From Pseudochelatococcus sp. (GTDB lineage Bacteria > Pseudomonadota > Alphaproteobacteria > Rhizobiales > Beijerinckiaceae): a stretch of 64,000 bases of DNA. Below the pieces are notes generated by a model, which saw only the letters and a program-made list of their open reading frames with translations, searched no databases and was not told the DNA's origin. The position numbers were made by a program, and so were the translations under genes. Each line of letters begins with the position of its first letter. The first letter of the stretch is position 1. The DNA is taken from positions 71,443 to 135,442 of the forward strand of contig NZ_JBMNUS010000013.1 in NCBI RefSeq assembly GCF_050946405.1, written 5' to 3'. This document shows positions 21,430 through 59,166 of this stretch, in pieces.

Positions 21430-21632
21430 AGCCGTGCCGGGGCGCAAGAAATGTCGCATTCTGGCGGCGGCCGCCGCCGCCGACCGTGCGGATATCGGAT
21501 GGAATCGACACGGCCATGCCGTTCAGCGCCGGCACGGAGCGCGTTAACGCTCCTGAAATTTCACGCATTTTCACGGATATTCAAGAGGTGCCTCATCAAT
21601 GGGCAGAGACTGCCTAATGGGTAGTCACATCG

Positions 21633-21663
21633 GCAAAAATTGCATGATAACGACAAAAATTGC
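21633..21663. promoter_or_regulatory. Direct repeat (G/A)CAAAAATTGC x2, 20-bp register, 50-80 bp upstream of megasynthetase start; AT-rich promoter region
   Basis: gcaaaaattgc at 21633-21643 and acaaaaattgc at 21653-21663 read in sequence; also TTTCACG x2 at ~21557/21568. Confidence 0.4.
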
Positions 21664-21711
21664 GTCGCGGGGAGAGGCGGGCGCTTGCGTCGTCATCTCC
21701 CATATCGTTAC

Positions 21712-23470
21712 ATGTCGGCGACAATCAGGCAGACTTTCCCCTCCCGATCGGATCAGCCGTTCATGTGCTCGTTCAAAGCGCCGTCGACGCTCAATGACGC
21801 CCTTGTCTCAAATGCGGGCGTGTCGGAGATCGGAGTTGCGGGCATTGGCGATCCGCCGCGCGGCGTGACCTTTTTCGGGGCCGACCGCCAGCTCACGCAT
21901 GTTTCCTACGCGCAGTTGCTCGACCGCTCCCGCCGCTGGCTGTGGCATCTGACGCAGGGCGGCGTCCGCCCCGGCGACGAGGTGCTGATCGTCACCGACG
22001 ACCTGCCGCTGTTCACGACGGTTTTCTGGGCCTGCGTGCTCGGCGGCATCGTCGCCGTGCCGGTCTCGACACCCACGAACGACGAGGGGGCGCTCAAGAT
22101 CGCGCGTATCCGGGGCGTTCTGCGGCGTCCGTGGATCGTCTCGGACGCGCGGGTGCATGCTCGCCTCGCCGCCGTCGCGGACGGGATCGCGCCGGAACGC
22201 ACGGCGTGCGCCGGCGAGCGCTCGATCGCGGTTCCCGGCGTCGTGCTCGATTGTCCGGCGGCGCCGGTGGCATCCGTGGCGGCGTCGGATGTGGCCTTCA
22301 TCCAGTTTTCCTCCGGCTCGACGGGCGCGCCGAAGGGCGTGATCGTCACCCACGCCAACCTGATCGCCAATTGCACGGCCATTCTCAAGGGCATCCTTGC
22401 GAACGCGCCCGGTGAAAACGGAGAAGCCGCGCGCCTGTTGAGCTGGATGCCGCTGACGCATGACTTCGGCCTCATCTGGTTCCACATCCTGCCGACCGTC
22501 TTCGGGCTGGATCACGGCCTCGTCCCGACGAAGCTCTTCGTGCGCAACCCGCTGGTGTGGATGCAGGCGGCCTCCGACATGAAGGCGAGCGTGCTCGGCG
22601 GGCCGAATTTCTCTTACCGGCATTTCCTCAAGCATTTCGATGCCGGCAAGCCGCGCGACTGGGATCTGTCGCCGGTCCGCGTCATCGCCAACGGCGCGGA
22701 GCCCATCTCCTGCGAACTGGCGGAGGAGTTCACCGCGGCGCTCGCGCCTTGCGGACTCGATCGCGGGGCGATGACCGCCGCCTACGGGCTGGCGGAAGGC
22801 ACGCTGGTGGTGAGCATGGCGCAGCCCGGCGCGGGGCTCGGCCGGATTTCCGTCGACCGCAACCGCGTCAATCCCGGCGAGCGCGTCGCGCCGCTGGATG
22901 AAGGCGATGACGCCGCGGTGAGTTTCGCGGATGTCGGGACGCCGCTGGATTGCGTGTCGCTGCGCGTTGTCGACGAGGCGGGGCTGCCCTGCGCCGACGA
23001 TGTGGTCGGCCGCTTGCAGATAACCGGCGCGAGCGTGACCGCCGGTTACTACAACGACGACGAGGCGACGCGCGCCGCCTTCACGGCGGACGGCTGGCTG
23101 GATACGGGCGATCTGGGCTTCATGCGCGCCGGGCGTCTCGTCGTCACGGGCCGCCGCAAGGACGTGATCATCGTCAACGGGGTGAACTACTATCCGCAGG
23201 ACATCGAGCGCGTGGCCGGCGAGGCGGAAGGGCTCGACCTCAACATGGTGGTCGCCGGCGCGATCCCGCGCGGGGTTCTCGGCGAGGATCGGGAAGGCGT
23301 CGTGCTGTTCGTGCTGTTCCGGCGCGAGGTGGAGCGGTTCCTCCCGCTCGCCCGCGAGGTGCGCGACCGCGTGCTGCGCGAGATCGGCATTCCCGTCGAT
23401 CGCGTCATTCCGGTGGCCCGCATCGCCAAGACGACGAGCGGCAAGGTGCAGCGCTTTCAGATGGTGGGGC
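21712..23470 (+). other. domain: fatty acyl-AMP ligase (FAAL/AL) starter
   Basis: AMP-binding core FSSGSTGAPKG, no upstream C domain, followed by ACP - MycA-like loading. Confidence 0.75.
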
Positions 23471-26400
23471 AGTTCGTCGCCGGTGCGTTCGATGAAGCGT
23501 TGCGCGCGCTCGATGCGGCGGATGCGGCCGAGGGCGCCGCGCTGCGCCGGGCGTGGGAGCGGGGCGACGAGGCCGCGCTGGTGGCGGAACTGGCGGCGTG
23601 GGGCGCGCGCATCGTGCCGGGCGGCGCGCTCGATCCGGGCCGGCCGCTCATGGAAAGCGGCTTCACGTCGCTGCGTCTCGTCGAACTGATGCGGCGCATC
23701 GGCCGCGCGCTCTCGCTGGACCTGCCGGTCACGCTCGCCTTCGAACAGCCGACGCTGGCGGCGCTCGCCGGCGCGCTCGTGCGCCTGCGCAGCGCCGATG
23801 CCGCGCCTGCGGAAGCGCCGCGCGCCGCGCCGGCGGCGGAGCGGGCGCGGATCGGCATCACCGGGCTGGCCTGCCGCCTGCCCGGCGGCGTTGAAAGCCC
23901 GGCCGGCTTCTGGCGGCTGCTTGAAGGCGGCGTCGATGCGACGGCGCCGGTCGCGCCCGGCCGCTGGCCGGCTTACGACGCCAGCCTGACCGTGACCGAT
24001 CGCGGCGGCTATCTGGCGGATATCGAAACCTTTCCGGCCCGGTTCTTCAATCTGACGCAGGTGGAGGCCGATGCCGTCGACCCGCAGCAACGGCTGCTGC
24101 TCATGACGGCCTGGGAGGCGCTGGAGCACGCGGGGATCGATCCGCTGTCGCTGAAGGGATCGCGCACCGGCGTGTTCGTGGGCATCAGCCCCGGCGATTA
24201 CGTGCAGGCGCAGGCGCGCGCCGGCCGGCTCGACGCCATCGGCCCGCATGCGTTTCTCGGCAGCGCAACGAGCGTCGCGGCCGGGCGCATCGCCTATGTG
24301 CTGGGGCTGGAGGGGCCGGCGCTGGCCGTCGACACGGCCTGTTCGTCGGCGCTCGCGGCGCTCCATCTCGCGGTGCGGGCGCTGCGGGCCGGCGAGTGCG
24401 ACCGCGCGCTGGTGGCGGGCGTCAATCTCATCCTCGGCCCCGAGATGCATGTGGGCCTCAGCCGCATGAACGCGCTGTCGCCCGCGGGGCGCTGCCGGGC
24501 TTTCGACGCGGCGGCGGACGGCTACGCGCGCGGCGAGGGCTGCGTCACGCTCGTGCTGGAGCGTCTCGATGCCGGAGATGCGCCACGTCCGCTCGCCCTT
24601 GTGCGCGGCACGGGCCTCAACCACGACGGCGCGTCGAACGGGCTCACCGCGCCCAACGGCGCGGCCCAGCGGGCGGTGATCGCCGCCGCGCTCGCGGATG
24701 CGGGCCTTGCGCCGGCCGATGTCGACTATGTGGAGGCGCACGGCACCGGCACGCCGCTCGGCGACCCGATCGAGGCGATGGCGCTGGCGGAAGCCTACGG
24801 CGCGGGGCGCGACGGCGAGCTGCGCGTCGGCTCCGTCAAGACCAACATCGGCCATCTGGAGGCCGCCGCCGGTCTTGCCGGCCTCGCCAAGGCGGTGCTC
24901 GCGCTCCGGCATGGCAGCCTGCCGGCCTCGCTGCATTTCGAGACGCCCAATCCGCTGATTCCGTGGCCGCAACTGCCCCTGCGCGTCGTCGACCGCGCCG
25001 AGCCGTGGCCGGCCGTGGCCGGGCGGGTGCGCCGGGCCGGCGTCAGCGCCTTCGGCATGAGCGGCACCAACGCGCATGTCATCATCGAGGAAGCACCGCC
25101 GGCGCCCGTGCCCGCGCATGACGACGCGCGGGCGACGGTGCTGCCGGTTTCCGCGCGCACGCCGGAGGAATGCGCCGCGCTGGCGGAGCGTTACGCGGCC
25201 GCGCTGGAGCGCGCCGACAGCGGCCGCATGCACGATCTGGCCCGCACGGCAGCGTGCGGCCGGGCGGCGATGGCGCATCGGCTGGCGGTGACGGGACGCG
25301 ATCCGGCGGAACTCGCCGCGAAGTTGCGGGCGAAGGCCGCCGCCGGGGCTGGCAGGCCCGATGCCGGCGCGCCCGTCGTCTTCCTGCTGCCGGGGCAGGG
25401 GGCGCATGCGCCGGAGGCGGTGCGCGCGCTCCATGCGCGCGAGCGCGTGTTCCGTGAGACGCTGGATGCGGCCGATGCGGCGCTTGAGGGCTTTCTGGAC
25501 CGGCGCCTGACCGATCTCCTGCTGTCGCCGGAGGGCGCGCCGCTTCTGGGGCGCACGGCCTACAACCAGCCGGCGACGGTGGCGGTGTCGCTGGCGGTGG
25601 CGGCGATGCTGCGGGCGTTCGGCGTGCGGCCCGATGCGGTCATCGGGCATTCGGCCGGCGAGATCGCGGCGGCGGCGCTCGCGGGCATGCTGGATCTGCC
25701 CACGGCGGTGCGGTTCGCGGCGGCGCGCGGCGCGGCCATGCAGGCGCTCGACGGCGGCGCGATGATCGCGGTGCGCGCGCCGGCGCAGACGATCAACGAC
25801 GTGATTGCGCAGACCCTGGCGCGGGTCGAGGGCGTGGGCGTCGCCGCCTGGAACGCGCCGGCGCGCGTCACGCTGTCGGGGCCGCGCGAGGCGGTGGCGC
25901 GGGCGGCCGCCGTCCTGCGCGAGGCAGGCGCGCGCGTGGCAGAGCTGCGCGTGGCGGAGCTGGACGTGTCGCACGCCTTCCACTCGCCGATGATGGACGG
26001 CGCGCTCGCCCCCATCCGCGAACTTGCCGCCGGCCTCACGGTGAGCGCGGCGACGGGGCGCATGATTTCCACGCTGACGGGCGGGCCGGTCGATGCCGGG
26101 GCGCTGCGCGATCCCGCCTATTGGGCGCGGCAGGCGCGCGAGCCGGTGGCCTTTGCCGCCGCCGTGTCGGCGGTGGGGGGCGATGCGCCCGACCGCGTCG
26201 ATCCGGTTCTGATCGATCTTGGCGCGCGGCCGGTGCTGGCGCCGCTCGCGGCGGAGGTGCTGCCGCAGGCGCGCTGCCTCGCCGTCTGCGACGCGCGCCG
26301 GCCCGACGAGCGGCTCATCGAGACGCTGGGCGAACTGTTCGAAGCCGGCCGGCCCGTGGCATGGCCCGCCGTCTTCGCGGAGCGTCCCGGCCGGCTCGCG

Positions 26401-29400
26401 GAAGCGCCGACCTATCCCTTCATCGGCAAGACGCGCGTGCTGCCGACGGCCGGTGCGGATTCCCGCGCCGGCGAAGCGCAGGCGGCCGGCCGGGCGGAAG
26501 CGCTGCCCGTGCCCGCGGCGACAGCCCCGGTGGCGGGGCGCGAGGCGGTTGCGCACGTCATCCGCAGCGTCCTGCGCGGCGTCGCCGGGCTCCAGCCGGA
26601 GGAGGTGGCGGGCGATGCGACATGGTTCAGCCTCGGCCTCGATTCGCTGCTGATCGTCCAGCTCCAGCAGGCGCTGGCGCGCGAATACGCCATCGACCTG
26701 CCGCTCGCCGCCGTCATGGAGAACGGCGATACGCTCGACCGGCTCGTGACCCTCGTGGTGGAGCGCCTGCCCCGCGTGGCGCAAGCGCCGGTGGAAGCGC
26801 CCGTTATGGAGACGCCCGCTGCGGCGGCGGCTGGCGGCGAAGGCGTCGAGGGGCTTCTCGCCCGGCAGATCGACGCCATGAGCGCGCTGTTCAGCCAGCA
26901 ACTCGCGTTGCTTCAGGGCGGAGTCCGGCCGGCGGTTTCGACGCCCGCCGCTATCCCGGACGTCGCAGTCGCCGGGCCGGCCCCGGCCGCGCCGAAACGC
27001 GAGATCAAGGGCCTGTTCAAGGCGCTGCCGGCGCGCAGGGAGCAGGCGAATCCGGCGCAGGAGGCGCATGTGCGCCGCCTTGCCGCCGCCTTCAACGCCC
27101 GCACGCGCTCCTCGAAGGAGCATACGGCTGCCTATCGTGGCGTCTACGCCAACCCGCGCGCCGTGATCGGCTTCCGCCCCGAGTGGAAGGAGCTGAACTA
27201 CCCCCTGCATGTGGAGCGGGCGGAAGGGCCGTATGTGTGGGATATCGACGGCCATCGTTATGTCGACATCACCATGGGTTTCGGCGTGACGCTGTTTGGC
27301 CACAACCCGCCCTTCGTGCGCGAGGCGCTGGCGGCGGAGCTTGCCGCCGGCTTTCCCGTCGGCCCGCAGAGCGCGCGGGCCGGGCGGGTCGCCGCCATGA
27401 TCAGCGCCATGACCGGCGTGGAGCGGGTGGCGCTGTTCACCACCGGCAGCGAGGCCGTCATGGTCGCGCTGCGGCTGGCGCGCGCGAAAACCGGCCGGCG
27501 CAAGATCGTGACCTTCGTCAATTCCTATCACGGCACGTTCGACGGCGTGCTGGCGGTGGGCTGGACCGAGGGCGCGCGCGTGACGACCATGCCCGTGAGC
27601 GAAGGTACGCCGCAAGGCATGGTCGATGACGTGATCGTGCTGCGCTACGGCGATCCGGCCGCGCTCGACGTCATCCGCCAGCACCTCGCCGAACTGGCGG
27701 CCGTGGTGGTGGAGCCGGTGCAGAGCCGCGACCCGGCGGTGCAGCCGCGCGCCTTCCTGCACGAGTTGCGGGCGCTGACGGCGCAGGCGGGCGTCGCGCT
27801 CGTTTTCGACGAGACGATCACCGGCTTTCGCGTGCATCCCGGCGGGGCGCAACGCCATTTCGGCATCGAGGCCGATATCGTCACCTACGGCAAGGTCGTC
27901 GGCGGCGGCATGCCGATCGGCGTCGTCTCGGGAAGGCGGCATTATCTCGACGGCGTCGACGGCGGCGACTGGCAGTATGGCGACGATTCCGTTCCTTCCG
28001 CCCGCACCGCCTTCGTGGCCGGCACCTTCAACAACCATCCCCTGACGGCGGCGGCGGCGGAGGCGGTGCTGAAGCACCTCGCCGCCGAGGGGCCGCAGTT
28101 GCAGGAGCGGCTGAACGCCCGCACCGCCGCGATGTGCGCCGAGCTAGACGCCCTGTTCGCGGCCGAGGACGTGCCCGTCCGCATGGCGCATTTCAGCTCG
28201 CTGTTCCGTTTCGAGTTCGCCGGCGACACCGAGATCCTCAACTATCACCTGCTCAACAACGGCGTTTTCGTCTGGGAGGGGCGCAACTGCTTCCTCTCCA
28301 CCGCCCACAGCGACGACGACATCCGCTTCATCGTCGAGGCGGTGCGCAAGGGCATCGCGGAGATGCGGGCCGGCGGATGGCTGCCGCCGTCGCCGGGCCG
28401 CGCCGCGCCCGAGGCGCGCCAAGAGCATGGTGCGCGCGAGGAGGCAGGACCGGCGCCGCTCGGCCGGGGGCAGGGCGAGATGCTGGCGCTGCTCGAAGCG
28501 CGGCCGGAGGCGACGCTCGCCTATAACGAGATGGTGGCCTTCGCGCTCGACGGCCCGCTCGACCGGGAGGCGCTGCGCCGCGCCTTCGCCGGGCTCGTGC
28601 GGCGCCACGAGGCGCTGCGTTGCGCGGGCATCGACGAGACCGGCTGGCGCGCGGCGGCTCTTCCGCCCGCCGACCTGCCGGCGGAAGAGCCGGCCGAAGA
28701 AGGAGCGGTGATGGCGCGCCTGGCGCGCGAACTCGAAACGCCGTTCGATCTGCAACGCGGGCCGCTCATGCGCGCGCTGCTGCTGCGCCTTGCGCCGCAG
28801 CGGCATGTGGTGGCTTTCACCGTGCATCACATCGTCGCCGACGGCTGGTCGCTCGGCCTGATGGCGGGCGAACTCGCGGCGCTTTACGCCGCCGAACGGG
28901 CCGGCGTGGCGGCGGCGCTGCCGCCGGCCGAATCGTTCCGCGCCTTCGTCGCCTGGACGCAGGGCTTGGACGGCGGCGCGTCTCCGATGGCGGAAGACAG
29001 CGCGCCCGTCGTCCTGCCGGCCGCCGATTTCCCGCATCGCGCGTCCTTCCGCGGCGGGCGCGTCCACCGCCGCCTGTCGGCGGGCGGGCGGGAAGGCGAA
29101 GGCGTGTTCGATGCCGCGAGGCGTTTCGCGCGCGCGCATGACACAAGCCCGTTCACGGTGCTGCTCGCGGCCTATGCGCTGCTGCTCGGCCGCCTGTCGG
29201 ACCAGCGCCGGCTGACCATCGGCATTCCCGTCGCCGGCCATACGGAGGCCGGCTTGCCGGTGATGGTGGGGCAGGCGTCGGCGGTGCTGCCGCTGACGCT
29301 GGAACTCGATCCGCAAGCGGATTTCGCAGCCCTCGTTGCCCATGTGAAGGCGGCGCTGGCCGATGCCCGGCACGGCGTCGGCGGGCTCTTCACCGCGCAG

Positions 29401-32400
29401 GGCGGGCGGGGCACCGATGTCAACGTGCTGTTCAACCTCGACCGCGGTTTCCGGCTCGATTTCGAGGGATTGGGGCTGACGTGGATATCGCCTCCGGTCA
29501 GCCGGCCGAAAAAGGACCTGTTCCTCAACGTGCTGGAGCTGAACGGCGAAGCGCTGCTCGATCTCGATCATGACGGTGCGCTGGGCGATTCCGCCACGGC
29601 GGAGCGCTGGCTCGATTCCTTCCTGTCGCTGCTCGCCGAGGGGCTGCGCGCGCCCGCGACGCCGATCGCGCGCCTGCCGCTCTCCGCCGCTGACCGGGCG
29701 GCACAGGCGGATGATGTGCGCACGCGCGACGGCTTCGGCGCGCCGGCCGCCATCGGCACGGTCGCGCCGGTGGAGGCGCGCGACGATGCGGGGCTTTGGG
29801 CCGACACGGGGCGGCTCGGCCGGCTGCGGGCGGATGGCGGCGTCGAGGTGCTGGGCGAGGCGCGGCGTTTCCTGCGCACGCGCGGCGGCTGGCTCGATCT
29901 CGACCTTCCGGCGCGGGTGCTGCGGGAACACCCGGCGCTGGCCGATGCCGCCGTGATCGCGGAATCCGGCGGGCTGACCGCCTTCGTGACGCCGCGCGCG
30001 GGCGGGCAGGTCGACGGGCAGGCGCTCGCCGCCTATGCGGCGCTGCGGCTGCCGCCCGAGGCGCGGCCGGCCGCCTTCGTCGTGACGGATATCGCGCGCG
30101 ATGCCGGGGGGCGCGCCCTCCTGCGCGCCGATCACGGCGAGCGTCTCGCCACGCGCGCCCTCACGCCCGCCCGCACCGATGCGGAGAAGGCGGTCGCGGC
30201 GATCTGGGCCGAGGTTCTCGGGCTGGAGGAAGTCGGCGTCCTCGACAGCTTCTTCGACCTCGGCGGTCACAGCCTCAAGGCGCTCGCCATCCTCGCGCGC
30301 GTCGAGGCGCGGCTCGGGCGCACCGTGCGGCTGCGCGCCTTCTTCGAGGAGCCGACCGTGGCGGGGCTCGCGTCACGTCTGGGCGCGGGCGAGGCGCATG
30401 CCGTCATTCCGACCGCGGCACCGGCGGCGCATTATCCGGCGTCGAACGCGCAGGCGCGGCTGTGGATGCTCGACCGGATCGATCCCGGCCTTGCCGCCTA
30501 CAACATCGGCTTTTCGCTGCGCAGCGCCGCGCCTCTCGACGAAACCGCGCTGCGGATCGCGCTGGCGGGCCTCGCCGGGCGGCACGAGAGCCTGCGCACG
30601 GCGCTCATCGACCATGACGGCCTGCCGCGCCAGACGATCCTGCCCGCGTTGCAGCCCGAGCTGCGCATCGAGGATGCGGTGGGCGCGGACGCGGCGGCGC
30701 TCGTCGCGCGGGAGCGGGCCATCGCCGCCGAGCCCTTCGCGCTGGAGCGCGCGCCGCTCTGGCGGGCGGTGCTGCTGCGCGGGGGGCAAGGGGATATCGA
30801 GCCGGCGGGCGACCGTCTGGTGTTCGTGCTGCATCATGCCATTGCCGATGTGTGGTCGGTCGGCGTTTTCGTGCGGGATTTTCTGGCGTTGTACGCAGAG
30901 GCCGGCGGCGCACGGCTGCCGGCGCTGGCGCTGCAATACCGGGATTATGCGGTCTGGCAGGTGGGGCGGCCGGAGCCGCATCTTGACTGGTGGGTCGCGG
31001 CGCTGGCGGATGCGCCCCGGCTGGAGCTGCGGCCCGACCGGCCGCGCCCGCCGCTCAAGACCTTCAACGGCGATCATGTCGTTCTCGATGTGCCGGGGCC
31101 GGTCGCGGCGGCCCTCAAGGCGCTTGCCGCCGTCAACGGCGCGAGCGCGTTCACGGCGGTGGTCGCGGCGCTCTGCAACCTGCTGTGGGAAGAGACGGAG
31201 GCGCGCGACATCGTCATCGGCACGGTGACGGCGGGGCGCGACCATCCGGCGCTCGCGGACCAGATCGGTTTCTTCGTCAACACGCTGGCGCTGCGCGCGC
31301 GGGTGGCGCCGGAGGCGGGCTTCCTGCCGCTGCTCGCGGGCGTGCGCGATGCGCTGCTGGCGGCGGCCGAACATGGCGATACGCCGCTCGACCGGGTGGT
31401 CGAGGCGTTGAACCGCCCGCGCGATCCGGCGCGCAATCCGCTGTTCGAGGTCGTCGTGGTCATGGACGACCGCGAGGAGATCGACCGGCTGCTCGCCGGC
31501 ACCGGCTTCGCGCTCGCGGAAATCGACACGGCGACGGCGCAGTTCGACCTCACGCTTTATGTCACCGACGGCGCGGACGGCATCCGCATCAAGGCGACCT
31601 ACAATACCGACCTGTTCGACCGCGCCCGCATCGAGGGACTGATGGCGCGGCTGGCGGGGCTGATGGCGGGGGCGGCCGCCGATCCGGCGCGCGCGCTCGC
31701 CGCGCGGGCGCAGGGGGGCAGGGCGGCGCATGGTTCCGCGCCTGGCCAACGGCAAGGCTACGCGCCGTCGCGCCATCAGGAGCGGCTGTGGTTCGTGGAT
31801 CACTTCGAGCGCGGCGTGCTCTATCCGTCCGGGCCGACCTATTACAACATGCCGTTCGTGGTGCGCGTCGACGGCGCGGTCGATGCCGCGCGGCTCGCGG
31901 CTGCCGCTGCGGCGCTTGCGGCGCGGCATGAGGCGCTGCGCGCGGCGCTCGTCACGCAGGGCGACCGTCCGGCCGTCGAGGTCGCGGCGGCTGCGGCGCT
32001 GCCGGTTGCGGAGATTGCGGCGCCGGCGGGGGCGGGGCTTGCCGCAGTCGAGGAGGCGAGCCGCGCGGCCTTCGACCTCGATACGCCGCCGCTCGCCCGT
32101 CTGACGCTCTGCCGCGAGGCGGGGAGCGGCGCCTGCTGGCTCGCCCTGACGGTTCATCACGCCATGGGCGACCGGGCGGCGCTGCGCACGCTGGCGGAGG
32201 AACTCGCCCGCCTTTATGCCGACCCGGCCGCCGCCCTGCCGGAAATCCGCCCCTTCGGCGCGGCCCATGCGCTGCCGGAGCGGGCGGTGGAGGCCGGCCA
32301 TGAGGCGGATGCCGCCTATTGGCGCGAGGCGCTGGCGGGCGTTTCCGCGCTCGTGCTGCCGACGGACCGGCCCCGCCCCGCGATCCACACCTTCACGGCG

Positions 32401-47364: not shown

Positions 47365-47410
47365 ACAGGCGGTTGCGTTTTGACGAGAGGCATGCAGGGG
47401 AATGACGATC

Positions 47411-50400
47411 ATGCTCGGGACATCGCAATGGCGTGAGGGCGGCGGAAGGTGGCTGCGCCGGTTCGCGCTCGGATCGGCCGCCGCGGCGGCGGTGACGGGA
47501 ACGGCGCTGGCCGCCGATGTTTCGCAGGTGGGGCCGGTCTTGCAGGGGTTTCTCGATGCGACGGCCTCGCAAGGCACGCTTCAGGGGGTCGCGATCGGCG
47601 TCGACCTGCCGGGTGGCGAAGGGAGCTGGTTCGGCGGGGGCGGCTATCGCGACATCGCCCGCACCGAGCCGCTCGGCGCCGACCTGCAATTCCGCATCGG
47701 CAGCGCGTCGAAGACCTTCACCGGCACGGCGGTGTTGCAGCAGGTGGATCAGGGGCTGATCGGGCTCGGCGATTCGATCGACAAATGGGTGCCCGATCTC
47801 AACGTGCCCGGCGGCGACCGGATCACCGTCGAGAACCTGCTCAGCATGACGAGCGGCATTCCCGACTATCTGGGCGCGGAGTCGATCCATAGCCCCGGTA
47901 ATACGATATTGCAGGAATGGGCCAACTTCCACGGCCCGGCCGGTTCCCACGGCAACGCCGACTACACGCCCGAGCAGCTCGTGGGCGCGGTGGTCGACAG
48001 TCTCGGGGCCAGCTTCGGGCCGGTCGGCGAGATGTTCTATTCCAACACCAATTTCGCCCTGCTCGGCATCATCGCGCAACGCGCGTCGTGCCTCGGAGCC
48101 TCCGGTTGCCGGACGATCGACGAAATGGTCAACGGCATCGCCGCTTCCATGGGGCTTGCCGACACGGTCTTTCCCGCTTCGTCCGCCTTCACGGCGCCTT
48201 ATGCGGAAACGGCGCAGGTCGTCATCGGCGACGCTTCCTATTACGGCGTTCCGCCCGGCAGCAGCTTCGACATGACCTTCCTCGATCCGCGCGTGCCGTG
48301 GGCGGCGGGCGCGGTGTTGTCGACGCCGGCGGATGAACTGAAATGGGTGCGCCAGCTCGCGACCAACAGCGACGGGCTGCTGTCGGCGCAGACGCAGGCC
48401 GAGCGTGTCGGCGTGGCGGAGCCCGGCGAGGTGAGCGGCGTGCCGGTGTTCTACGGCCTCGCCCTCTATGCCATGCCCGGCGTGGGGAGCGGCACCTATC
48501 TGACCGGCCACAGCGGGCTGATCGGCGGCGACACGGCGTCGCTGTTCTACAATCCGGCGCTGGACGTGGCCTATGCCGTCAATTTTCTCGGCTATCAGGC
48601 CAATGCATTGCCATGGTTTCCGCTCTACGGCGCCTCCGACGCCCTGGGCCGTTACGTTTATGCGGGAAGGGAAGGGGGCAATTACAGCTCCGTCATGATC
48701 CTGTGGGCGCTCGACCGCAACGTCACGCTGGCGCTCACCGCGCAGGGCTCGTGCAGCTACGGGGCCGGCCCGCAGGGCGCGGGCGGCGACAGGACCTGTG
48801 CGGGCGACAGCGTGCGCACGACGCCGATCGCCGTCACTGATGGCACGCTGACCATCGCCCCGTCCCACCTGACCATGGGCAATTACTACATCGATCCCGT
48901 CACCGGCGCCGTTTCGCTGGCGCAGGTGGCGCGGCCGAGCCTTGCGATGTTCGGCAGCCATTCCGCCGCGGTGGCGTTGCAGGGCGGGGCCTCGCTCGTG
49001 CTGCCGCAAGGGGCGACGGCCGAGCTGTGGGGCACGAACTCCGCCACCGTCAGCATGACCGGCGCGGACAATGCCGCGCACATCGGCGGCACGCTTCTCA
49101 CCTACGGCGTGGATTCGGTGGCGGTGCGGATTATGGGCGACCGCAACCGGGTGAACGTGCTGCCGACCGGCGCTGTGGTCGGCGCCAGCGCGCCCGCCAT
49201 CGCCATGAGCGGCCGCGACAACGCCGCCGTCATCGGCGGCAGCGTGACGACCTACGGCCACGGCATCGAGCGGATCGCCATCGCGGGCGAAGGCGGCGGC
49301 AATCGCGTGGAGGTGGAGCCCACCGGCTATGTCGGCGGCGACATCGCGCTCGCCGGCGACGGCAACCGGGTGAGGGTCGACGGCATCGTCTCGGGCCATG
49401 TGCCGATGGCGGGAGGCGACGCGGTGCTGAGCGGCGAGGGCGTGATCACCGGCGTCGTGGGCGGCGGCGGCACGGTGGCGCCGGGCAATGGCATCGGCAC
49501 GCTTACCGTCGGCGGCTATGCCGGGCGCGATACCCGGCTGATGATCGAGACCGGGCCGGGCGGCGCGAGCGACCTGCTCGCGGTGGCTGGCCCCGCTTCC
49601 CTGACCGGCGGCAGCCTGCATGTCACGCCGCCGCCGGCGGCGGCGAGCGGCATCTACAATGTCCTCTCCGCCGGCGCGGTGGAAGGGGCGTTCGCCGCCG
49701 CCACCACCGGCGGCCGCGTGGGCCTTGGCGTGCAATACACGCCGACGGCGGTCAATGTCGCGGCGGTCAACCCCTTCCTGTTCGATGCGGCGGTGCGCAC
49801 CGGCGCGGCCGATACCCTGCGCAATCTCGACCTGTTCGAGGAGCGGGCGGCGGCGTTCGCCGCTTCAGCTACTTCCGCCGCGCCGGCCGGTGCGGCACGT
49901 GGGCCTGCCGCCGGCGCGCAGGCCGAAAACCTGAAGGAATGGTTCTCGCGGCGCGGCGCGTCGGCGGCGGGTTCCCGCGCGGCGGGGGCGGCGGTCTGGG
50001 CTTCGGCCTACGGCGCCTTCGACCGCCATGCCGCGGATGGGCCGGTGCCGACCATCGCGTCGGAGGGCGGCGGCGTCGCGGTGGGCGCCGATGCCGAACC
50101 CCTGCCCGGCCTGCTTGTGGGCGCGATGGGCGCCTACAGCCGCACCCAGGCGACGACGCCGGCGAATCCGGGAATGAAGTTCTCCTCCGACGCCTACAAG
50201 GCCGGCGTCTACGGCGCTTACGAGGCCGGGCGCGTGCTGTTCAGCGCCTCGCTGCTCGCCGGCCGGGGCGACGACACCACCACGCGCGCGGTGGAATCGG
50301 GAGCGCTCGCCGGTGTGGCGCAGGGCAGCTTCGACGATTTCCGCCTCGCCGCCCGCGTGGGGGCGCGCGCGACCTTCGATGTGGGCGCGGGCGTGCGCCT

Positions 50401-50836
50401 GACGCCGCGCGCCGCCGTCACGCTGCTGCGGATCGAGCAGGACGCCCATCGCGAGATCGGCGGCATTCCGGGCTACGGCTTCGGCATCGGCATCGGGGCA
50501 AGCACGTATGAACAGGTGCGGTCCGAGGCATCCCTTGCGGTTGCGAAGACTTTCGACGTTTCCCTGGGCGGCTGGAGCGGCCGGCTCACGGGCGAGCTTC
50601 GCGCCGGCCTCGCGCGCGACATCGTGCTGAAGAGCGCGAACGGATGGGTCGACGTGCCCGGTTTCAGCCCCGTCGTCACCGGCGGCTTCAAGCGGAACGC
50701 CTGGGTGATGCCGGTCGGCGGCCGGCTGGAGCTGGCGGCGAGCGACTCGCTCTCCGTCTTCGCCGCCTACGATGGCGCGTTCTCCAGCCTCGGTGGCGTC
50801 AATACGGTGCGCGGCGGCTTACACTGGCGTTTCTGA
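47411..50836 (+). CDS. autotransporter with beta-lactamase-fold (S12 peptidase / class C PBP-like, PF00144-type) passenger
   Basis: Signal peptide; SxxK (GSASKTF) and YxN (YSNTNF) catalytic motifs of class C beta-lactamase/DD-peptidase/D-aminopeptidase fold; central passenger repeats incl. GNGIGTLTVGGY (PATR-like); C-terminal ~280 aa beta-barrel ending ...LHWRF (aromatic terminus). ATG 47411 preferred over 47402 for SD spacing. Confidence 0.8.
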   Translation: MLGTSQWREGGGRWLRRFALGSAAAAAVTGTALAADVSQVGPVLQGFLDATASQGTLQGVAIGVDLPGGEGSWFGGGGYRDIARTEPLGADLQFRIGSASKTFTGTAVLQQVDQGLIGLGDSIDKWVPDLNVPGGDRITVENLLSMTSGIPDYLGAESIHSPGNTILQEWANFHGPAGSHGNADYTPEQLVGAVVDSLGASFGPVGEMFYSNTNFALLGIIAQRASCLGASGCRTIDEMVNGIAASMGLADTVFPASSAFTAPYAETAQVVIGDASYYGVPPGSSFDMTFLDPRVPWAAGAVLSTPADELKWVRQLATNSDGLLSAQTQAERVGVAEPGEVSGVPVFYGLALYAMPGVGSGTYLTGHSGLIGGDTASLFYNPALDVAYAVNFLGYQANALPWFPLYGASDALGRYVYAGREGGNYSSVMILWALDRNVTLALTAQGSCSYGAGPQGAGGDRTCAGDSVRTTPIAVTDGTLTIAPSHLTMGNYYIDPVTGAVSLAQVARPSLAMFGSHSAAVALQGGASLVLPQGATAELWGTNSATVSMTGADNAAHIGGTLLTYGVDSVAVRIMGDRNRVNVLPTGAVVGASAPAIAMSGRDNAAVIGGSVTTYGHGIERIAIAGEGGGNRVEVEPTGYVGGDIALAGDGNRVRVDGIVSGHVPMAGGDAVLSGEGVITGVVGGGGTVAPGNGIGTLTVGGYAGRDTRLMIETGPGGASDLLAVAGPASLTGGSLHVTPPPAAASGIYNVLSAGAVEGAFAAATTGGRVGLGVQYTPTAVNVAAVNPFLFDAAVRTGAADTLRNLDLFEERAAAFAASATSAAPAGAARGPAAGAQAENLKEWFSRRGASAAGSRAAGAAVWASAYGAFDRHAADGPVPTIASEGGGVAVGADAEPLPGLLVGAMGAYSRTQATTPANPGMKFSSDAYKAGVYGAYEAGRVLFSASLLAGRGDDTTTRAVESGALAGVAQGSFDDFRLAARVGARATFDVGAGVRLTPRAAVTLLRIEQDAHREIGGIPGYGFGIGIGASTYEQVRSEASLAVAKTFDVSLGGWSGRLTGELRAGLARDIVLKSANGWVDVPGFSPVVTGGFKRNAWVMPVGGRLELAASDSLSVFAAYDGAFSSLGGVNTVRGGLHWRF

Positions 50837-51541
50837 CCGGGTGTTTCCGAGCCGCATATGCGCGAGGACTTGCGCGTGAAACTCGTCCGCGTTCTCGCGC
50901 AGGAAGAAGTGCCCGCCCGCGATCGTCACCAGCTCGAAACCATCGCCCGCGACCGCCGCCCAGCCGGCGATCTCGCGCGGCGAGACGAGCGGATCGTCCG
51001 CGCCGGCGAAGGCGACGACCGGACAGGTCAGGCGCTCGACCGGAAAGGGCAGGGACGTTTCCGCCAGGGCGAAATCCGCCCTGAGCGTGCGCTCGAACAA
51101 TTCTCGGAACTCCGCGTTGCGCACGATTTCCTCCGGCGTGCCGTTGTAGGAGGACAGCCGGCGCCAGAATTCTTCGGAAGGCAGGTCATGCAGCGGCGGC
51201 ATGCGGGGCGGGGCGCCGGGAGGGCGATGCGCGGCGACCATGACGCAGGCGGGCGCGGGAAGACCGAGACGATCCGCCGCCCGCGCGAGACAATAGGCGA
51301 CGCGCGCGCCAAGCGAGTAGCCGAGCAGGACGTAGGGACGATCGAGCAGCGGCGTGAGCGCCTCGATGAGGCGCGCCAGCAGGAGGGGCATCGAGGCAAT
51401 GGGGGTCTCCGAAAAGCGGCTTTCGCGGCCGGGGAACTGCGCGGGCAGGACTTCGAGCCGCTCATGAGCGCGCGCATGCGCCCGCAATCCGGCGAAGGCG
51501 GATACGCCGCCACCCGCGAAGGGCAGACAGATCAGCCGCAT
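50819..51541 (-). CDS. type II thioesterase (editing TE)
   Basis: MRLICLPFAGGG... GYSLGA (GxSxG) ... alpha/beta hydrolase; start 51541 chosen (typical TEII N-terminus) inside ORF 50819..51703; 18-bp convergent overlap with autotransporter stop. Confidence 0.75.
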   Translation of the reverse strand: MRLICLPFAGGGVSAFAGLRAHARAHERLEVLPAQFPGRESRFSETPIASMPLLLARLIEALTPLLDRPYVLLGYSLGARVAYCLARAADRLGLPAPACVMVAAHRPPGAPPRMPPLHDLPSEEFWRRLSSYNGTPEEIVRNAEFRELFERTLRADFALAETSLPFPVERLTCPVVAFAGADDPLVSPREIAGWAAVAGDGFELVTIAGGHFFLRENADEFHAQVLAHMRLGNTRSETPV

Positions 51542-51882
51542 GGCAGGGCGACCCGTACCCCCGGCGGCGGGAAACCAACGGCGCATGGCCGCAGCAGAGA
51601 CGGACGGTTCCGCTCCTTCTTCGCCAGCAGCGGTAATGTCTCTCTCCATTGCCATCATGTCTTCGGGGTATCGGATCGTGCGCATTATTATAGCAGGCGA
51701 CAAAGGTATAGCTCTCGACTCCGATGGTCAACTATGATAGGTGTAGGATATTACTTTCATGAAATAGAAAGTGTTCTGGACAGTGTGCGCCGGTTGCGTC
51801 GGGGCGGGGCCTGAAAGCGGTGGGCGGTGGACTGTCACGGTTGCGAATTCCATCTCGTTTCATACTCCCGGAGGAGAGCATC

Positions 51883-57300: not shown

Positions 57301-58387
57301 GACCGAACACCGGCGGCCGCAGGCTCCCGCGCCCGGAGCGCCGGAGGCGGGAAACGAGACGGAGGAGAAACTGCGCGCGATCTGGCGCGAGGTGCTGTTT
57401 CTCGACCATGTGGGCCTCGACGACGATTTCTTCGCGCTCGGCGGCCACAGCCTGAAGGCGATCCTCGTCGCCTCGAAGGCGCGGGCGGTGTTCGAACGCC
57501 CGCTCACGCTGCGCAGCCTGTTCGATCACCCCACCGTGCGCCGACTCGCCGTGCATATTGTCGGCGGCGCCACGCCCACGCCTGTCGGCGGCGATCGGGT
57601 GCTGCCGCTGCGCGCGGGATCGTCCGACGCGCCGCTCGCCGTCTTTTTCCCGCCGGCGCTCGGCACGTCGACCCCCTACCGCGATCTGGTCGAGCCTCTC
57701 GCGGGCGATGTCGCCTGCATCGGGATGCAGGCGCCGGGTTTCGACCGCGACGAGCCGTTCGCGGAAAATGTGGCGGACTGCGCCGGACATTTCGTGCGGG
57801 CCTTGCGGCCGCTGATCGGACAGGGGCGGAGACTTCGACTGGTCGGCTGGTCCATGGGTGCGCATTTCGCACTGGAGACGGCGTTGCAGTTGGAGGCGGA
57901 AAACGGAGGGCATCGGAGCCCGGCGCTCGAACTGATCCTGCTGGACAGCGCCCCGCCGGCGGCGGACGACGGAACGAACGATGCGTCGGACGGCTTGCCG
58001 GGCTTCGCGGCGTTACGCACGCGCCCTTATTGGGGCCGCGTGCTGGCGATCATGGATGCGATGCCCCCGGCCGATCTCGCGCGCATCGAGCGTCTCGCCC
58101 GGCACAATCATGCCGCGGTGCGGCGACATCGCTTCACCGGCGTCGTTCACAGCCCCGTCACCTGCCTGGAGGCCGCCGATGCGCTTCCCCGCGCGGGCAT
58201 GGAAGGCTTCCGCCGATTCGCGGCCGGGCGATTCGCCGTGCATGAGGTCGGTGGCGATCATTACTCGATGTTCCATCCGCCGCATCTGAACACGGTGCTG
58301 TCGTGGCTTGAACAACTGCTGACGGCCAGCGGCAGCGGCGCGGGCGCGACACCGGCCGCCAGCGCACCGGGATCGCTGACGGCATAG
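54398..58387 (+). CDS. NRPS termination module: C-A-PCP-TE (about 1330 aa)
   Basis: C domain IKDIYPLTPFQEG start and HHVLMDGWC ~54850; A YTSGTTGVPKG ~56250 ... NGKTDRKAL; PCP FFALGGHSLKAIL ~57440; thioesterase GWSMGA ~57850. Start: GTG 54398 (gives MLSRDNIKDIYPLTPFQEG) or ATG 54332; ORF-track start 53873 overlaps SPFH gene and is rejected. Confidence 0.85.
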   Translation: MLSRDNIKDIYPLTPFQEGVVFHDLMEREAAHEGQRAYFQQMSFTVRGPLDIAAFRRAWQFLVDRHDVLRTVFRPTGAERPLQIVLKARELVPDVVDCRALGPDAAGATCERYEAEQRQRPFDLRRDLLVRLGLLLIAPEETRVVFGFHHVLMDGWCIGILQDDLTRAYQAFTRGDAPRLPAAVQFGGFVKASERRRTARALDFWRDYLADYETAVALPGRRPVALDGPRDSLTHEAALGEALTAQLDARARALGVTPGTLAQALWGVLLAKMENRRDVVFGTMASTRLPDLPGGEAVLGPCIGMLPLRIRYAPSETFAELVAQVHAQRPGWLGHVHCALADIQQASAPRGALIGHYFVYENYPLDARFRGEAQVLAPGVTIHDVRMFQTGNYDFGALMLPGESARLVLTFNSRAVDPAAVARIGRWFVRLARQAAGEPDCAIDAMTLLDDEEAARIEAWGRGAEPGVLAPDIAALRRDVVARRGEAPAVRAGGRTLSHAELEARARGLAAWFRRAHGIGPGDPVALHLPAGEGLVTAMLACLLLGAPFVPLDPGNPALRTAHILKDSGARLVLAQGALPEEAAAGVPVAQSPADPGALDGEALPAVDADATAYIIYTSGTTGVPKGVRVGQSALINYVGWFGTLSGAGPDMRTALVTSAAFDLGYTGLFGALLGGGCVSLPDEDERRDPAHVLALLADHGIMVLKTTPSYLSMLLATPGGEARLAGAGALRLLLLGGEPQNFAELRRLRQRLPGLRIYNHYGPTEATIGCAAGPLDDLADRGEGPQRLGRPIAGVRLFVCDAALRPVPPGVPGELLVAGRGLAQGYVNASPADAARFAVLPWCGGLRVYRTGDRVRWADDGTLEFLGRVDDQVKVRGYRVSLKEVEAALTALECVRDAAVVTDARGGATELVAYVVPEGERPEGETTPAAIRAALARRLPPPMIPARFIAVSRFPLTANGKTDRKALTEHRRPQAPAPGAPEAGNETEEKLRAIWREVLFLDHVGLDDDFFALGGHSLKAILVASKARAVFERPLTLRSLFDHPTVRRLAVHIVGGATPTPVGGDRVLPLRAGSSDAPLAVFFPPALGTSTPYRDLVEPLAGDVACIGMQAPGFDRDEPFAENVADCAGHFVRALRPLIGQGRRLRLVGWSMGAHFALETALQLEAENGGHRSPALELILLDSAPPAADDGTNDASDGLPGFAALRTRPYWGRVLAIMDAMPPADLARIERLARHNHAAVRRHRFTGVVHSPVTCLEAADALPRAGMEGFRRFAAGRFAVHEVGGDHYSMFHPPHLNTVLSWLEQLLTASGSGAGATPAASAPGSLTA

Positions 58388-59166
58388 GCGGTGAGGCGCG
58401 GCCGCTCGCCGGCGCGCAGGAGCATGGTGAGCGCGAAGGCGTGGCCCGAAGCGAGCAGACCGCTCTGGACGTGCCAGACGCCCGCGCGGCGCAGGTCTTC
58501 GTCGAGATGGGCGAAGCCGAGACGGGTGAAGCCGAGACTGGCGAAGGTTGGCTGATCGAGCGAGAAACCGGCGCAGGTCAGCGGGCGGGAAAGGCCCTGG
58601 CCAAGGCCCTTCACCACGCTTTCCTTCAGCGTCCACAGCCTGAAGAAGCGCTCCGCCATCGGTGTCGGGCAGTCGCCGTGAGCGGAATCCGGCTGGATGG
58701 GAGAGCGTTCCAGCGCGGCAAGGCCGGCCAGTTCCGCCGCCGTGCAGAAGCTTTGCGCCAGTTCGATCGTCGCCGTCGCCGGCGTCACGCGCTCGACATC
58801 GACGCCGGTCTCGCGGCCCTCGCACAACGCGACCGCCACGCAGCCCGCCGTGTGCGACAGGCTGAAGCGCACGTCAGGCATCCCCGGCGCGCGCACGATG
58901 CACGGCTTGCCGAGGGGCGAGGCGGTAAAGCGCCATGCCGCCGGCCCCGTTCCGGCGATATGGCGGGACAGCGCCCCCCGCAGCAGGCCGTGCGCGGCGA
59001 CGAATGTCTCGCGATCGCGCTCGAAACGGAAACGGCCCGCCCGCGCGGTCTCCTGCGCGTCGAGCCACGCTGCCGCCCGCCCGCCGGCGATCCCGGCCGG
59101 AGCCGCGATGTAAACCGATACCGGAATGTCCCGTATGGACGCCGGACTGTCGTGCATTATATCCAT
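58261..59166 (-). CDS. Sfp-type 4'-phosphopantetheinyl transferase
   Basis: PPTase motifs (GKPCI..., FSLSHTAGCVAVAL, WTLKESVVKGLG); ORF runs 127 bp into 3' end of NRPS3 on opposite strand. Confidence 0.75.
   Translation of the reverse strand: MDIMHDSPASIRDIPVSVYIAAPAGIAGGRAAAWLDAQETARAGRFRFERDRETFVAAHGLLRGALSRHIAGTGPAAWRFTASPLGKPCIVRAPGMPDVRFSLSHTAGCVAVALCEGRETGVDVERVTPATATIELAQSFCTAAELAGLAALERSPIQPDSAHGDCPTPMAERFFRLWTLKESVVKGLGQGLSRPLTCAGFSLDQPTFASLGFTRLGFAHLDEDLRRAGVWHVQSGLLASGHAFALTMLLRAGERPRLTAYAVSDPGALAAGVAPAPLPLAVSSCSSHDSTVFRCGGWNIE

Follow-up and report, generated by a model that had tools for sequence, protein, structure and literature searches.

An orphan, conserved FAAL-PKS-NRPS lipopeptide cluster of Alphaproteobacteria with an adenylation-less module and a threonine-linked extra condensation domain

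Among the agents of Bacillus biocontrol strains, the iturin-type beta-amino lipopeptides are major antifungal and membrane-active compounds, and the MycA-type systems of Bacillus use the trans-acting FenF. The MycA-type logic, which joins a fatty acyl-AMP ligase (FAAL), a polyketide synthase (PKS) and an aminotransferase (AMT), has been described together with the iturin architecture (PMC4219810), and RmyA of the ralsolamycin system in Ralstonia is a published proteobacterial case (PMC4989320). Laxaphycin A-type peptides begin with a beta-amino acid, a residue X and dehydrobutyrine (Dhb) (PMC7524897). Here we analyze an intact cluster of about 38 kb, from a metagenome-assembled genome (MAG) of Pseudochelatococcus sp., that appears to use a variant of this logic. 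It occupies approximately 21.7-59.2 kb of a stretch of 64,000 nucleotides, hereafter the window (assembly GCF_050946405.1, contig NZ_JBMNUS010000013.1, positions 71,443 to 135,442 of the forward strand), and encodes three megasynthetases, P1, P2 and P3, of the PKS type and the nonribosomal peptide synthetase (NRPS) type together with accessory proteins (Table 1).

Two unusual traits of this cluster, a surplus condensation (C) domain and a module devoid of an adenylation (A) domain, have relatives among described systems. In the vibriobactin synthetase VibF the domain order is Cy1-Cy2-A(Thr). The icosalide synthetase IcoA contains a tandem C pair in which the C domain beside the A domain is an extra initiator (PMC10510592), and the albopeptide synthetase AlbB has surplus dehydrating C domains (PMC10880069); in such systems one domain condenses while the other is responsible for ester formation, Ser/Thr dehydration or cyclodehydration (PMC10510592; PMC10880069). 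Modules consisting of a C domain and a peptidyl carrier protein (PCP) without an A domain are functional in the WS9326A, thalassospiramide and pandorachelin systems, where they are loaded in trans by a neighboring or free A(-PCP) unit (PMC7539972; PMC10510592; PMC13592322), and trans loading in WS9326A needs thioesterase-like shuttles (PMC7539972; PMC10510592).

Our results show that the cluster is real, intact and conserved, an orphan variant of the known FAAL-PKS(AMT)-NRPS lipopeptide logic. What makes it unusual is the combination of a conserved A-less module, a Thr-linked extra C subfamily, a methyltransferase (MT) resembling protein arginine methyltransferases (PRMT), a coupled AsnB-type amidotransferase and a D-peptidase-like autotransporter. 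We lean towards the view that it is functional, has spread horizontally and directs the synthesis of a small, anionic lipopeptide with a beta-amino fatty acid as its base.

The cluster and its MycA-type loading module

Coding frames were picked from an open reading frame (ORF) listing with a filter on third-codon-position GC content, and domains were called by Pfam and NCBIfam scans of whole proteins and overlapping pieces. Long unbroken plus-strand frames extend from 21.6 to 58.4 kb, and the approximately 26 kb of synthetase coding sequence contain no stops and no frameshifts, which a first-pass annotation of the window had considered the signs of a decayed cluster. All genes and domains that this annotation had listed were located by the scans, and with E-values from 1e-10 to 1e-268 chance is excluded for the domain assignments. 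The type II thioesterase and the 4'-phosphopantetheinyl transferase (PPTase) were correctly recognized as present, their orientation being corrected here to the minus strand; the plus-strand ORF at the position of the thioesterase had no family match. Exact-sequence look-ups identified the window proteins with NCBI proteins MGI6247449-68. Intergenic gaps of 3, -4, 40 and 37 bp indicate operon-like packing.

P1 is composed, in this order, of a FAAL, an acyl carrier protein (ACP), a ketosynthase (KS), an acyltransferase (AT), a second ACP, an AMT, C1, a vestigial piece of an A domain, PCP1, C2, C3, an A domain, PCP2 and C4. An alternative ATG at 21763 would give a protein of 4863 aa, which is the start of the database version (self-match P0371). 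The N-terminus finds its best NCBIfam matches among fatty acyl-AMP ligase models (PRK09192, E 5e-99), and a PP-binding domain (aa 636-689) comes after it. The catalytic motifs of the KS (DTACSS, HGTGT, NIGH) are all present, and the AT, located in cis, has malonyl-type motifs (GHSAG...HAFH), a marker of malonyl specificity. No ketoreductase (KR) or dehydratase (DH) was matched by Pfam between the AT and ACP2, and the gap of only ~105 residues means that neither is there. The AMT belongs to Aminotran_3 (E 6e-51), is of the glutamate-1-semialdehyde (GSA) aminomutase type and keeps the lysine for pyridoxal phosphate (PLP) in the motif YGK; C1 (HHIVADG) begins ~70 aa after it. P1 thus displays every sequence feature of a MycA-type FAAL-ACP-KS-AT-ACP-AMT-C loading module, in agreement with the first-pass proposal of a hybrid FAAL-PKS(AMT)/NRPS lipopeptide cluster, and its loading part is predicted to make a beta-amino fatty acid in the manner of MycA. 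The domain order, the lack of a KR and the GSA-aminomutase-type AMT are all shared with MycA, RmyA, Puw (puwainaphycin) and Lxa (laxaphycin).

At first pass this loading logic was taken to be rare outside Firmicutes and cyanobacteria, an assumption that our data do not support. Among 8,000 candidates scored with an AMT-C1-PCP1 query, the AMT-C(-A-PCP) architecture was found in 1,391 proteins at E<=1e-30, which span Proteobacteria, Acidobacteriota, Bacteroidota, Gemmatimonadota and other phyla, and RmyA of Ralstonia is another such case (PMC4989320). For the AMT-C part, the nearest relatives outside the cluster family are only ~40% identical.

While MycA/iturin systems have seven modules, the cluster described here has five, distributed over three proteins. 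The first NRPS module of MycA contains A(Asn), whereas that of P1 is without an A domain, and the malonyl transacylase that iturin systems encode separately is replaced here by an AT in cis. Tandem C domains, AsnB, the PRMT-like MT, the S12 autotransporter and the DUF697/SPFH genes are extras absent from the MycA description. Because it has five modules, an A-less module 1, no Asn code among its four A domains and an AT in cis, the cluster is, by its architecture, not a member of the iturin family, even though its loading module is MycA-type. It is not a collinear type I NRPS, with module 1 lacking an A domain, one module split between P1 (C4) and P2 (A-PCP), and six elongating C domains vs five amino-acid PCPs.

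An adenylation-less module and a threonine-linked condensation domain

Homologues were collected by searches with AMT-C1-PCP1, AsnB and P3, followed by contig look-ups, a genome scan with the alignment of the ABC transporter and tblastn analysis of synteny. The same gene set, at 50-80% protein identity, is present in at least six alphaproteobacterial genera, cultured strains included; the idea that the cluster might be specific to one strain is therefore abandoned in favor of a conserved family. A JGI metagenome contig, a MAG named Rhizobiales bacterium 32-66-11 and Azospirillum agricola have the genes in the same order, with identities of 60-67% for P1 and P2, 66-79% for AsnB and 67-74% for the ABC transporter (65% for P1, 79% for AsnB and 74% for ABC in the JGI contig). 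Methylobacterium frigidaeris JCM 32048 and Methylobacterium sp. EM32 have the cluster as well, both with AsnB, P2, the ABC transporter, the S12 autotransporter, the type II thioesterase on the minus strand, DUF697, the small ORF, SPFH and P3 in the order seen in the window. Further clusters were found in three Xanthobacter/Roseixanthobacter VTT strains, a Bradyrhizobium MAG and Pseudochelatococcus sp. B33, and a fragment in a Burkholderiales MAG. The autotransporter-to-P3 block runs divergently from P1 in both A. agricola and Azospirillum sp. TSH100.

The sequence that links C1 to PCP1 can be aligned, over motifs A7 to A10, with the intact A domains of all three synthetases. Its TGD is changed to TGR, motif A8 has degenerated and arginine stands in place of the A10 lysine, so that the catalytic residues are lost. 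The A remnant noted at first pass is therefore real and, on this alignment, is the C-terminal subdomain left over from an A domain that had its core deleted. Both the remnant and the PCP1 serine are present in all orthologues in the multiple alignment, as is the HHxxxD motif of C1, C2 and C3. Measured against two orthologues, the remnant (55/44% identity) is the least conserved of the segments scored from ACP2 to C4, while PCP1 reaches 75/71%; the tandem domains C2 (69/62%) and C3 (63/60%) compare well with C1 (64/55%) and C4 (66/60%). The A-less module, the active sites of the tandem C domains and the four A codes are all kept across orthologues. Since C2 and C3 are conserved like C1 and C4, and the PCP1 serine and HHxxxD are invariant, the non-canonical layout is, by these measures, a maintained design and not decay.

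PCP1 would have to be loaded in trans. The likeliest loader is the neighboring Thr-specific A domain, which would serve both PCP1 and PCP2 and is the simplest candidate because it is the only A domain in P1; the retained A subdomain may act as a docking piece. Alternatively, PCP1 could be loaded by the A1-PCP unit of P2 with the help of the type II thioesterase, a route similar to that of WS9326A. The cluster resembles the WS9326A, thalassospiramide and pandorachelin systems in having a C-PCP module without its own A domain, together with a type II thioesterase and an N-terminal A-PCP unit. Unlike them, it keeps a vestigial A subdomain before the PCP, and does so across genera.

C2 is a canonical LCL-type C domain (HHAIADVWS, YRDYAVW, IGFFVNTLALR). 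C3 is divergent: HHxxxD is kept as HHAMGDR, GWS and YxDYAxW are missing, and the N-terminal part has the signature HQERLWFVDHFERGVLY. In PDB searches all three P1 C domains that were compared, C2 and C3 among them, best matched LCL-type domains, which led us to reject an epimerization (E) or Cy identity for either of them. An E-C identity of the pair was rejected too, as there was no TIGR01720 match and there were no E motifs, both of which are found in the last domain of P2. Lacking a TIGR01720 match and keeping HHxxxD in both members, the pair consists of true tandem C domains, as had been annotated.

To see how common such an arrangement is, the segment comprising the A remnant, PCP1, C2 and C3 was searched exhaustively with phmmer against 1.84 billion cluster representatives. 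The only end-to-end match was the window's own 50%-identity cluster, and a continuous PCP-C-C match was obtained for two giant NRPSs, from Chitinophaga silvisoli and Aliikangiella marina. Domain parsing of the 149 best matches, the window's own protein excluded, revealed four tandem C-C pairs; in two of the four the second member is C3-like, and in both the next domain is an A domain with the code DFWNIGMVH. By comparison, Thr-type codes account for 39 of the 823 A domains (4.7%) in the protein set from this search. The signature HQxRxWF[IVL][DE]xxE was seen in no other C domain among the proteins compared, with the exception of one protein from a Pseudomonadota MAG, which has the order AMT-C-C3like-A(DFWNIGMVH). 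In four of four independent contexts, then, the C3-like domain is the second of a tandem C pair and comes before an A domain that has a Thr code. As judged from the signature, C3-like domains form a distinct subfamily tied to Thr-specific A domains. From their position between a C domain and a Thr-specific A domain in all four contexts we infer that C3 is an accessory member of the C family with the Thr residue as its target.

In our proposal C2 would make the peptide bond. Our leading guess for C3 is that it dehydrates Thr to Dhb, with oxazoline formation or O-acylation as alternatives. C3 is a surplus C domain next to a Thr-loading A domain, an association it shares with dehydrating C domains (C_modAA / DHC). 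As in IcoA, AlbB and VibF, two C-family domains precede one A domain or C domains outnumber peptide bonds; C3 differs from the Cy domains of VibF in keeping HHxxxD, is not close to AmbE and is not starter-like either. A bolder proposal, which we hold only tentatively, is that C3 represents an undescribed Thr-directed class of C domains, which would carry out a reaction such as dehydration, heterocyclization or O-acylation on the acceptor carrier, and that, together with an A-less module served by a shared A domain, on-line amidation by AsnB and a surface D-peptidase, it marks a structurally new lipopeptide family. If true, plant-associated Methylobacterium, Azospirillum and Xanthobacter would have this family in common.

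Tailoring, export and predicted product

Substrate codes of the A domains were derived from an alignment to the A4-A5 segment of GrsA, and the numbering was internally consistent. We take the code of the P1 A domain, DFWSVGMVH(K), to be the established Stachelhaus code for Thr, that of P3 (DLTKLGHIG) for Asp and that of P2 A2 (DAATIAAVC) for a Phe/Tyr-type aromatic residue. To our knowledge, the code of P2 A1, DVRHLALLA(K), matches no known code; a literature search for DVRHLALLAK and for microcystin codes returned nothing, and a PDB search with P2 A1 gave no substrate clue. Its Arg-239/His-278 pair presumably recalls McyB2/McyE (iso-linked D-MeAsp, D-Glu), and residue 3 is probably unusual and acidic. 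The P2 A1 code is identical in all orthologous loci (12-14 loci for the P2 codes), and the P2 A2 code differs solely in two distant loci, L001 and L018. Where the Thr and Asp codes vary, the specificity class stays the same, and the Asp code is kept in L031, L038, L039 and L040. As the A codes are conserved across orthologues, the product family is well defined, insofar as it can be predicted from them.

The MT insert lies between A8 and A9 of P2 A2. Among solved structures its best relatives are those of PRMT6 and CARM1 (E 2e-17), and the insert contains motif I (VVDIGTG), post-I and the double-E loop ISEIVGAIGGAEG; these relatives and motifs rule out the usual backbone N-MT. A similar arginine-methyltransferase-like insert is present in a Tyr-type A domain of LynB3 from the lyngbyapeptin B system, whose authors presume Tyr O-methylation (PMC10127204). 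The two proteins are alike in having a PRMT-like MT, of presumed function in both, inside the A domain of a Tyr-type module; in contrast to LynB3, which has a second MT for the backbone nitrogen, P2 has only the PRMT-like MT, followed by an E domain. Because the MT is PRMT-like, as in LynB3, O-methylation is favored, and by this analogy residue 4 is more likely O-methyl-D-Tyr than an N-methyl residue.

AsnB scores 434.7 against TIGR01536 (cut-off 267), and its stop overlaps the start of P2 (ATGA), to which it is translationally coupled. In all related loci, the distant L001 and L013 among them, it adjoins the P2 homologue. It may amidate the free carboxylate of residue 3 or of Asp, or else serve precursor supply; our confidence in this assignment is low. 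The start of P3 is confirmed by an identical database protein of 1351 aa. P3 and the PPTase, which are convergent, overlap by 127 bp at their 3' ends (window 58261-58387); an overlap of ~100 bp is annotated in Roseixanthobacter liquoris and none in Pseudochelatococcus B33. The PPTase occupies the same position in L039 and L040.

The product would be exported by the ABC transporter, for which the name of an identical database protein is "cyclic peptide export ABC transporter". The passenger of the S12 autotransporter (window 47402-48760) has alkaline D-peptidase (4y7p, E 4e-23) as its best solved relative, followed by DD-carboxypeptidases and a D-amino-acid amidase, with ClbP a weak match (E 3e-6). 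SxxK and YSN are kept in the orthologues from Azospirillum and Pseudochelatococcus B33, and the gene is syntenic with or linked to the cluster in Methylobacterium, Xanthobacter, Azospirillum sp. TSH100 and Pseudochelatococcus B33. TriF/BogQ are known as NRP resistance peptidases and ClbP as a prodrug peptidase. Like such S12 D-stereospecific peptidases, the enzyme is an SxxK/YxN serine hydrolase in an NRPS cluster with a D-residue in its product; unlike alkaline D-peptidase, TriF/BogQ and ClbP, it is fused to an autotransporter barrel, which predicts display at the outer membrane or release. Its probable role is extracellular cleavage of the product at the D-residue, either to mature it or to protect the producer.

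The type II thioesterase is conserved in four orthologous loci (L007, L014, L031, L040). The DUF697/small ORF/SPFH trio lies directly upstream of P3 in every orthologous cluster seen, with a BBP2_2 gene intervening in L039 and L040, and may protect or organize the producer membrane. A TIGR01194-type ABC transporter with DUF697 and/or SPFH/Band_7 also recurs beside unrelated NRPS genes (L018-L029) in Nitrospirillum, Arenibaculum, Sphingorhabdus, a Sphingomonadaceae MAG, Competibacteraceae and several MAGs, which suggests a reusable export or membrane-protection unit.

The main steps of the assembly follow from the sequence, to which Tyr O-methylation, ring closure and the action of the S12 enzyme are added as proposals. 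The FAAL would adenylate a fatty acid and load ACP1, after which the KS and the malonyl-specific AT would add two carbons on ACP2; the beta-keto group would stay because there is no KR, and the PLP-dependent AMT would convert it to a beta-amine. C1 would hand the acyl chain to PCP1. Later modules would add the Thr-coded residue (P1 A), the residue of the unusual, invariant code DVRHLALLA (P2 A1), an aromatic residue that is methylated and epimerized (P2 A2-MT-PCP-E), the PRMT-like MT O-methylating a Tyr-like side chain, and lastly Asp (P3, with its DCL-type C domain). The thioesterase (TE) domain would release the product, by analogy with iturins as a macrolactam closed on the beta-amine, and the surface-displayed S12 D-peptidase-like enzyme may process or detoxify it at the D-residue. 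The predicted product therefore comprises a beta-amino fatty acid, a trans-loaded X1, a Thr-derived residue, an unusual and probably acidic residue, a methylated D-aromatic residue and Asp; five carrier positions, one E domain and one MT bear out the five residues, at least one D and one methylated, foreseen at first pass. The predicted start of beta-amino acid, X and Thr or possibly Dhb is like that of laxaphycin A-type peptides.

Table 1. Features of the cluster and of C3-like domains in other proteins (nucleotide positions in the window unless given as aa)
Feature	Position	Strand	Basis or remarks
P1 megasynthetase	21712..36354	+	4880 aa, no internal stop; Pfam, NCBIfam
P1 FAAL	21892-23487	+	
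P1 ACP1	23617-23778	+	
P1 KS	23848-24942	+	
P1 AT	25378-26241	+	
P1 ACP2	26557-26754	+	
P1 AMT	27196-28272	+	
P1 C1	28480-29682	+	
P1 vestigial A C-terminal subdomain plus PCP1	29779..30378	+	AMP-binding_C E 2e-4; alignment; PCP1 intact (GGHSL)
P1 vestigial A subdomain	29779-30111	+	
P1 PCP1	30190-30378	+	
P1 tandem C2-C3	30427..33051	+	Pfam, motifs
P1 C2	30427-31698	+	
P1 C3	31753-33051	+	
P1 A (Thr code)	33106-34572	+	
P1 PCP2	34669-34860	+	
P1 C4	34915-36246	+	
AsnB-type glutamine-dependent amidotransferase	36358..38247	+	Asn_synthase + GATase_7; 3 bp after P1
P2	38244..45683	+	2479 aa; A-PCP-C-A(MT)-PCP-E
P2 A1	38316-39800	+	DVRHLALLA
P2 first PCP	39909-40103	+	
P2 C	40131-41480	+	
P2 A2 core	41547-42557	+	DAATIAAVC
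P2 PRMT-like MT insert	~42741-43823	+	
P2 A2 A9/A10	43821-43988	+	
P2 second PCP	44067-44252	+	
P2 E	44286-45653	+	TIGR01720 match and E motifs, in the last domain only
SyrD/PvdE-type cyclic-peptide ABC exporter	45724..47364	+	ABC_membrane + ABC_tran; TIGR01194 313.8 vs cut-off 286.2
S12 hydrolase (beta-lactamase fold; SASK, YSN) with autotransporter barrel	47402..50836	+	Pfam Beta-lactamase + Autotransporter
Type II thioesterase (GYSLG)	50819..51703	-	Pfam Thioesterase E 1.3e-30
DUF697	51820-52512	+	
Hydrophobic membrane ORF, 63 aa	52626-52817	+	
SPFH/Band_7 protein	52879-54318	+	
P3	54332..58387	+	1351 aa; C-A-PCP-TE
P3 C, DCL-type	54419-55768		HHVLMDGWC
P3 A	55835-57283		DLTKLGHIG
P3 PCP	57365-57556		
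P3 TE	57644-58321		GWSMG
Sfp/HetI-type PPTase	58261..59166	-	ACPS + AASDHPPT_N; HetI E 3e-21; convergent with P3
C3-like domain in P0373	aa 3620-4031		outside the cluster family
C3-like domain in P0498	aa 5390-5822		outside the cluster family
C3-like domain in P0042	aa 1001-1442		outside the cluster family

Several orthologous loci deviate from the window in detail. In a distant relative, L001 (ENA ERZ4231649 contig, 6210-22597; ~48-58% identity), the PKS is split into FAAL-ACP-KS and AT-ACP-AMT, like the split PKS of the laxaphycin lxa cluster; AsnB and a P2 homologue come directly after, and a divergent upstream gene with a C1-like start runs off the contig end. In Rhizobiales bacterium 32-66-11 (L005, ~5050-5130) and Burkholderiales bacterium 12-64-5 (L002) the P1 orthologue is broken in C2 into two overlapping genes, and L002 also lacks ~40 aa in C1 and ~70 aa in C2; these breaks are probably MAG assembly or frameshift artefacts. 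Some relatives carry genes of which none is found in the window: a Peptidase_S58 gene of the DmpA/BapA family next to P1 in R. liquoris (L040, 17091-18209), a TauD dioxygenase gene beside P3 in Azospirillum sp. TSH100 (L038, 14021-14992) and a gene for a BBP2_2 outer-membrane barrel between SPFH and P3 (L039, 8701-9981; L040, 8764-9981). A second beta-lactamase-fold gene next to P1 is a lineage-specific extra in orthologous clusters, and it too is lacking in the window.

The genes flanking the cluster are unrelated to it: upstream are genes for amino-acid/D-alanine catabolism, an Lrp-type regulator, ChrB/MFS, solute uptake and oxidoreductases, and downstream an alpha/beta hydrolase, Bmp and MCP. 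At window 14389-19602 a class III aminotransferase and an Lrp/AsnC regulator, both on the minus strand, are followed by an alanine racemase and a D-amino-acid dehydrogenase-type oxidoreductase. The latter two look like a dadAX-like D-alanine catabolic locus that is not part of the cluster, although in principle they could supply D-amino acids. GC content is 71-75% in the cluster interior vs 65-68% in the flanks, which is compatible with horizontal transfer but also with the composition bias of NRPS genes. A search for tRNA or integration marks found none.

Alternative readings and significance

A number of points weigh against our reading of the cluster as a functional source of an anionic beta-amino lipopeptide or against parts of it. 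Dehydration by C3 is weakened by position, since known dehydrating C domains are downstream of the Ser/Thr carrier and C3 is upstream of the Thr A domain; moreover, the solved dehydrating C domain of AmbE (7r9x) is absent from the PDB matches of C3 at E<=1e-5. The loader of PCP1 cannot be read from sequence. AsnB has the score of an ordinary, glutamine-hydrolyzing asparagine synthase and might do no more than provide Asn or ammonia, and an acidic, iso-linked substrate for P2 A1 is tentative, the literature search with its code having found nothing. No MbtH-like gene is present in the cluster. The product is a prediction from the genes, and whether the TE closes a ring or hydrolyzes is not predictable from sequence.

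This last uncertainty leaves room for a linear, microginin-like product, released by hydrolysis with a free N-terminal beta-amine, on which the S12 and S58 peptidases would act. The DmpA/BapA family includes peptidases specific for N-terminal beta-amino acids, and one of its members is encoded next to P1 in R. liquoris, but in this one genome only. Acyclic laxaphycins with a free beta-amino acid exist (PMC7524897); still, the characterized MycA-type systems (mycosubtilin/iturin, puwainaphycin, laxaphycin) mostly make macrolactams, and we regard a linear product as unlikely, though worth keeping in mind.

An icosalide-like assembly is quite doubtful. Here C3 would be a second initiating C domain that N-acylates Thr-S-PCP2 with a unit supplied in trans, such as another acyl chain, and C2 would join the chain on PCP1 to it, giving a branched or two-tailed product with six condensations. 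It would account for six elongating C domains on five amino-acid carriers, and C3, the divergent member of the pair, adjoins the A domain just as the extra initiator of IcoA does (PMC10510592). However, the cluster has no free-standing carrier, acyl ligase or second FAAL, PDB searches place C3 no nearer to starter C domains (RzmA, CDA) than to those of LCL type, and its strict link to Thr-specific A domains favors side-chain chemistry on Thr over generic N-acylation.

We give very little credence to a decayed or silent cluster, in which the lost module-1 A domain and a left-over C domain would be deletion scars and no product would be made. The deleted A core, a remnant without the catalytic residues of A7, A8 and A10, and one C domain more than the condensations require are what such decay would leave behind, yet the architecture is kept at 48-65% identity in several genera, with an invariant PCP1 serine, both HHxxxD motifs invariant, C2 and C3 conserved like other C domains and ~26 kb of synthetase sequence free of stops and frameshifts; published NRPSs with A-less modules are, besides, functional (PMC10510592; PMC13592322). 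An amphiphilic siderophore of the marinobactin or pandorachelin kind, with a fatty tail and Asp and Thr ligands, is similarly improbable: the product is predicted to be acidic (Asp, probably an acidic residue 3, Thr), a TauD-type dioxygenase accompanies P3 in Azospirillum sp. TSH100 and lipopeptide siderophores with A-less modules exist (PMC13592322), but TauD is not in the window, the cluster and its conserved core contain no TonB-dependent receptor and no hydroxamate, catechol, diazeniumdiolate or ferric-siderophore uptake genes, and the genes conserved alongside encode an exporter, a D-peptidase-like hydrolase and membrane proteins.

Searches confined to the published literature turned up neither a description of the cluster nor, for Methylobacterium, Azospirillum or Xanthobacter, a metabolite that would match it, in line with the undescribed metabolite predicted at first pass. 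Its core logic is widespread, there are many other orphan NRPS clusters, and the more exciting proposals on mechanism are still inference; this is one orphan cluster family among many, of a known biosynthetic kind. Nevertheless, it offers cases for enzymology: the loading of an A-less module with a retained A subdomain, the role of a Thr-linked extra C domain, and a surface-displayed D-peptidase-like enzyme that would act on the product of its own cluster. With cultured carriers at hand (M. frigidaeris JCM 32048, A. agricola CC-HIH038, Azospirillum sp. TSH100, R. liquoris VTT E-85238 and Pseudochelatococcus sp. B33), the cluster is a good target for genome mining. Should Methylobacterium, Azospirillum, Xanthobacter and Bradyrhizobium relatives indeed have a conserved counterpart of the iturin-type lipopeptides, this would suggest that a class of metabolites has been overlooked in well-known plant-associated alphaproteobacteria.

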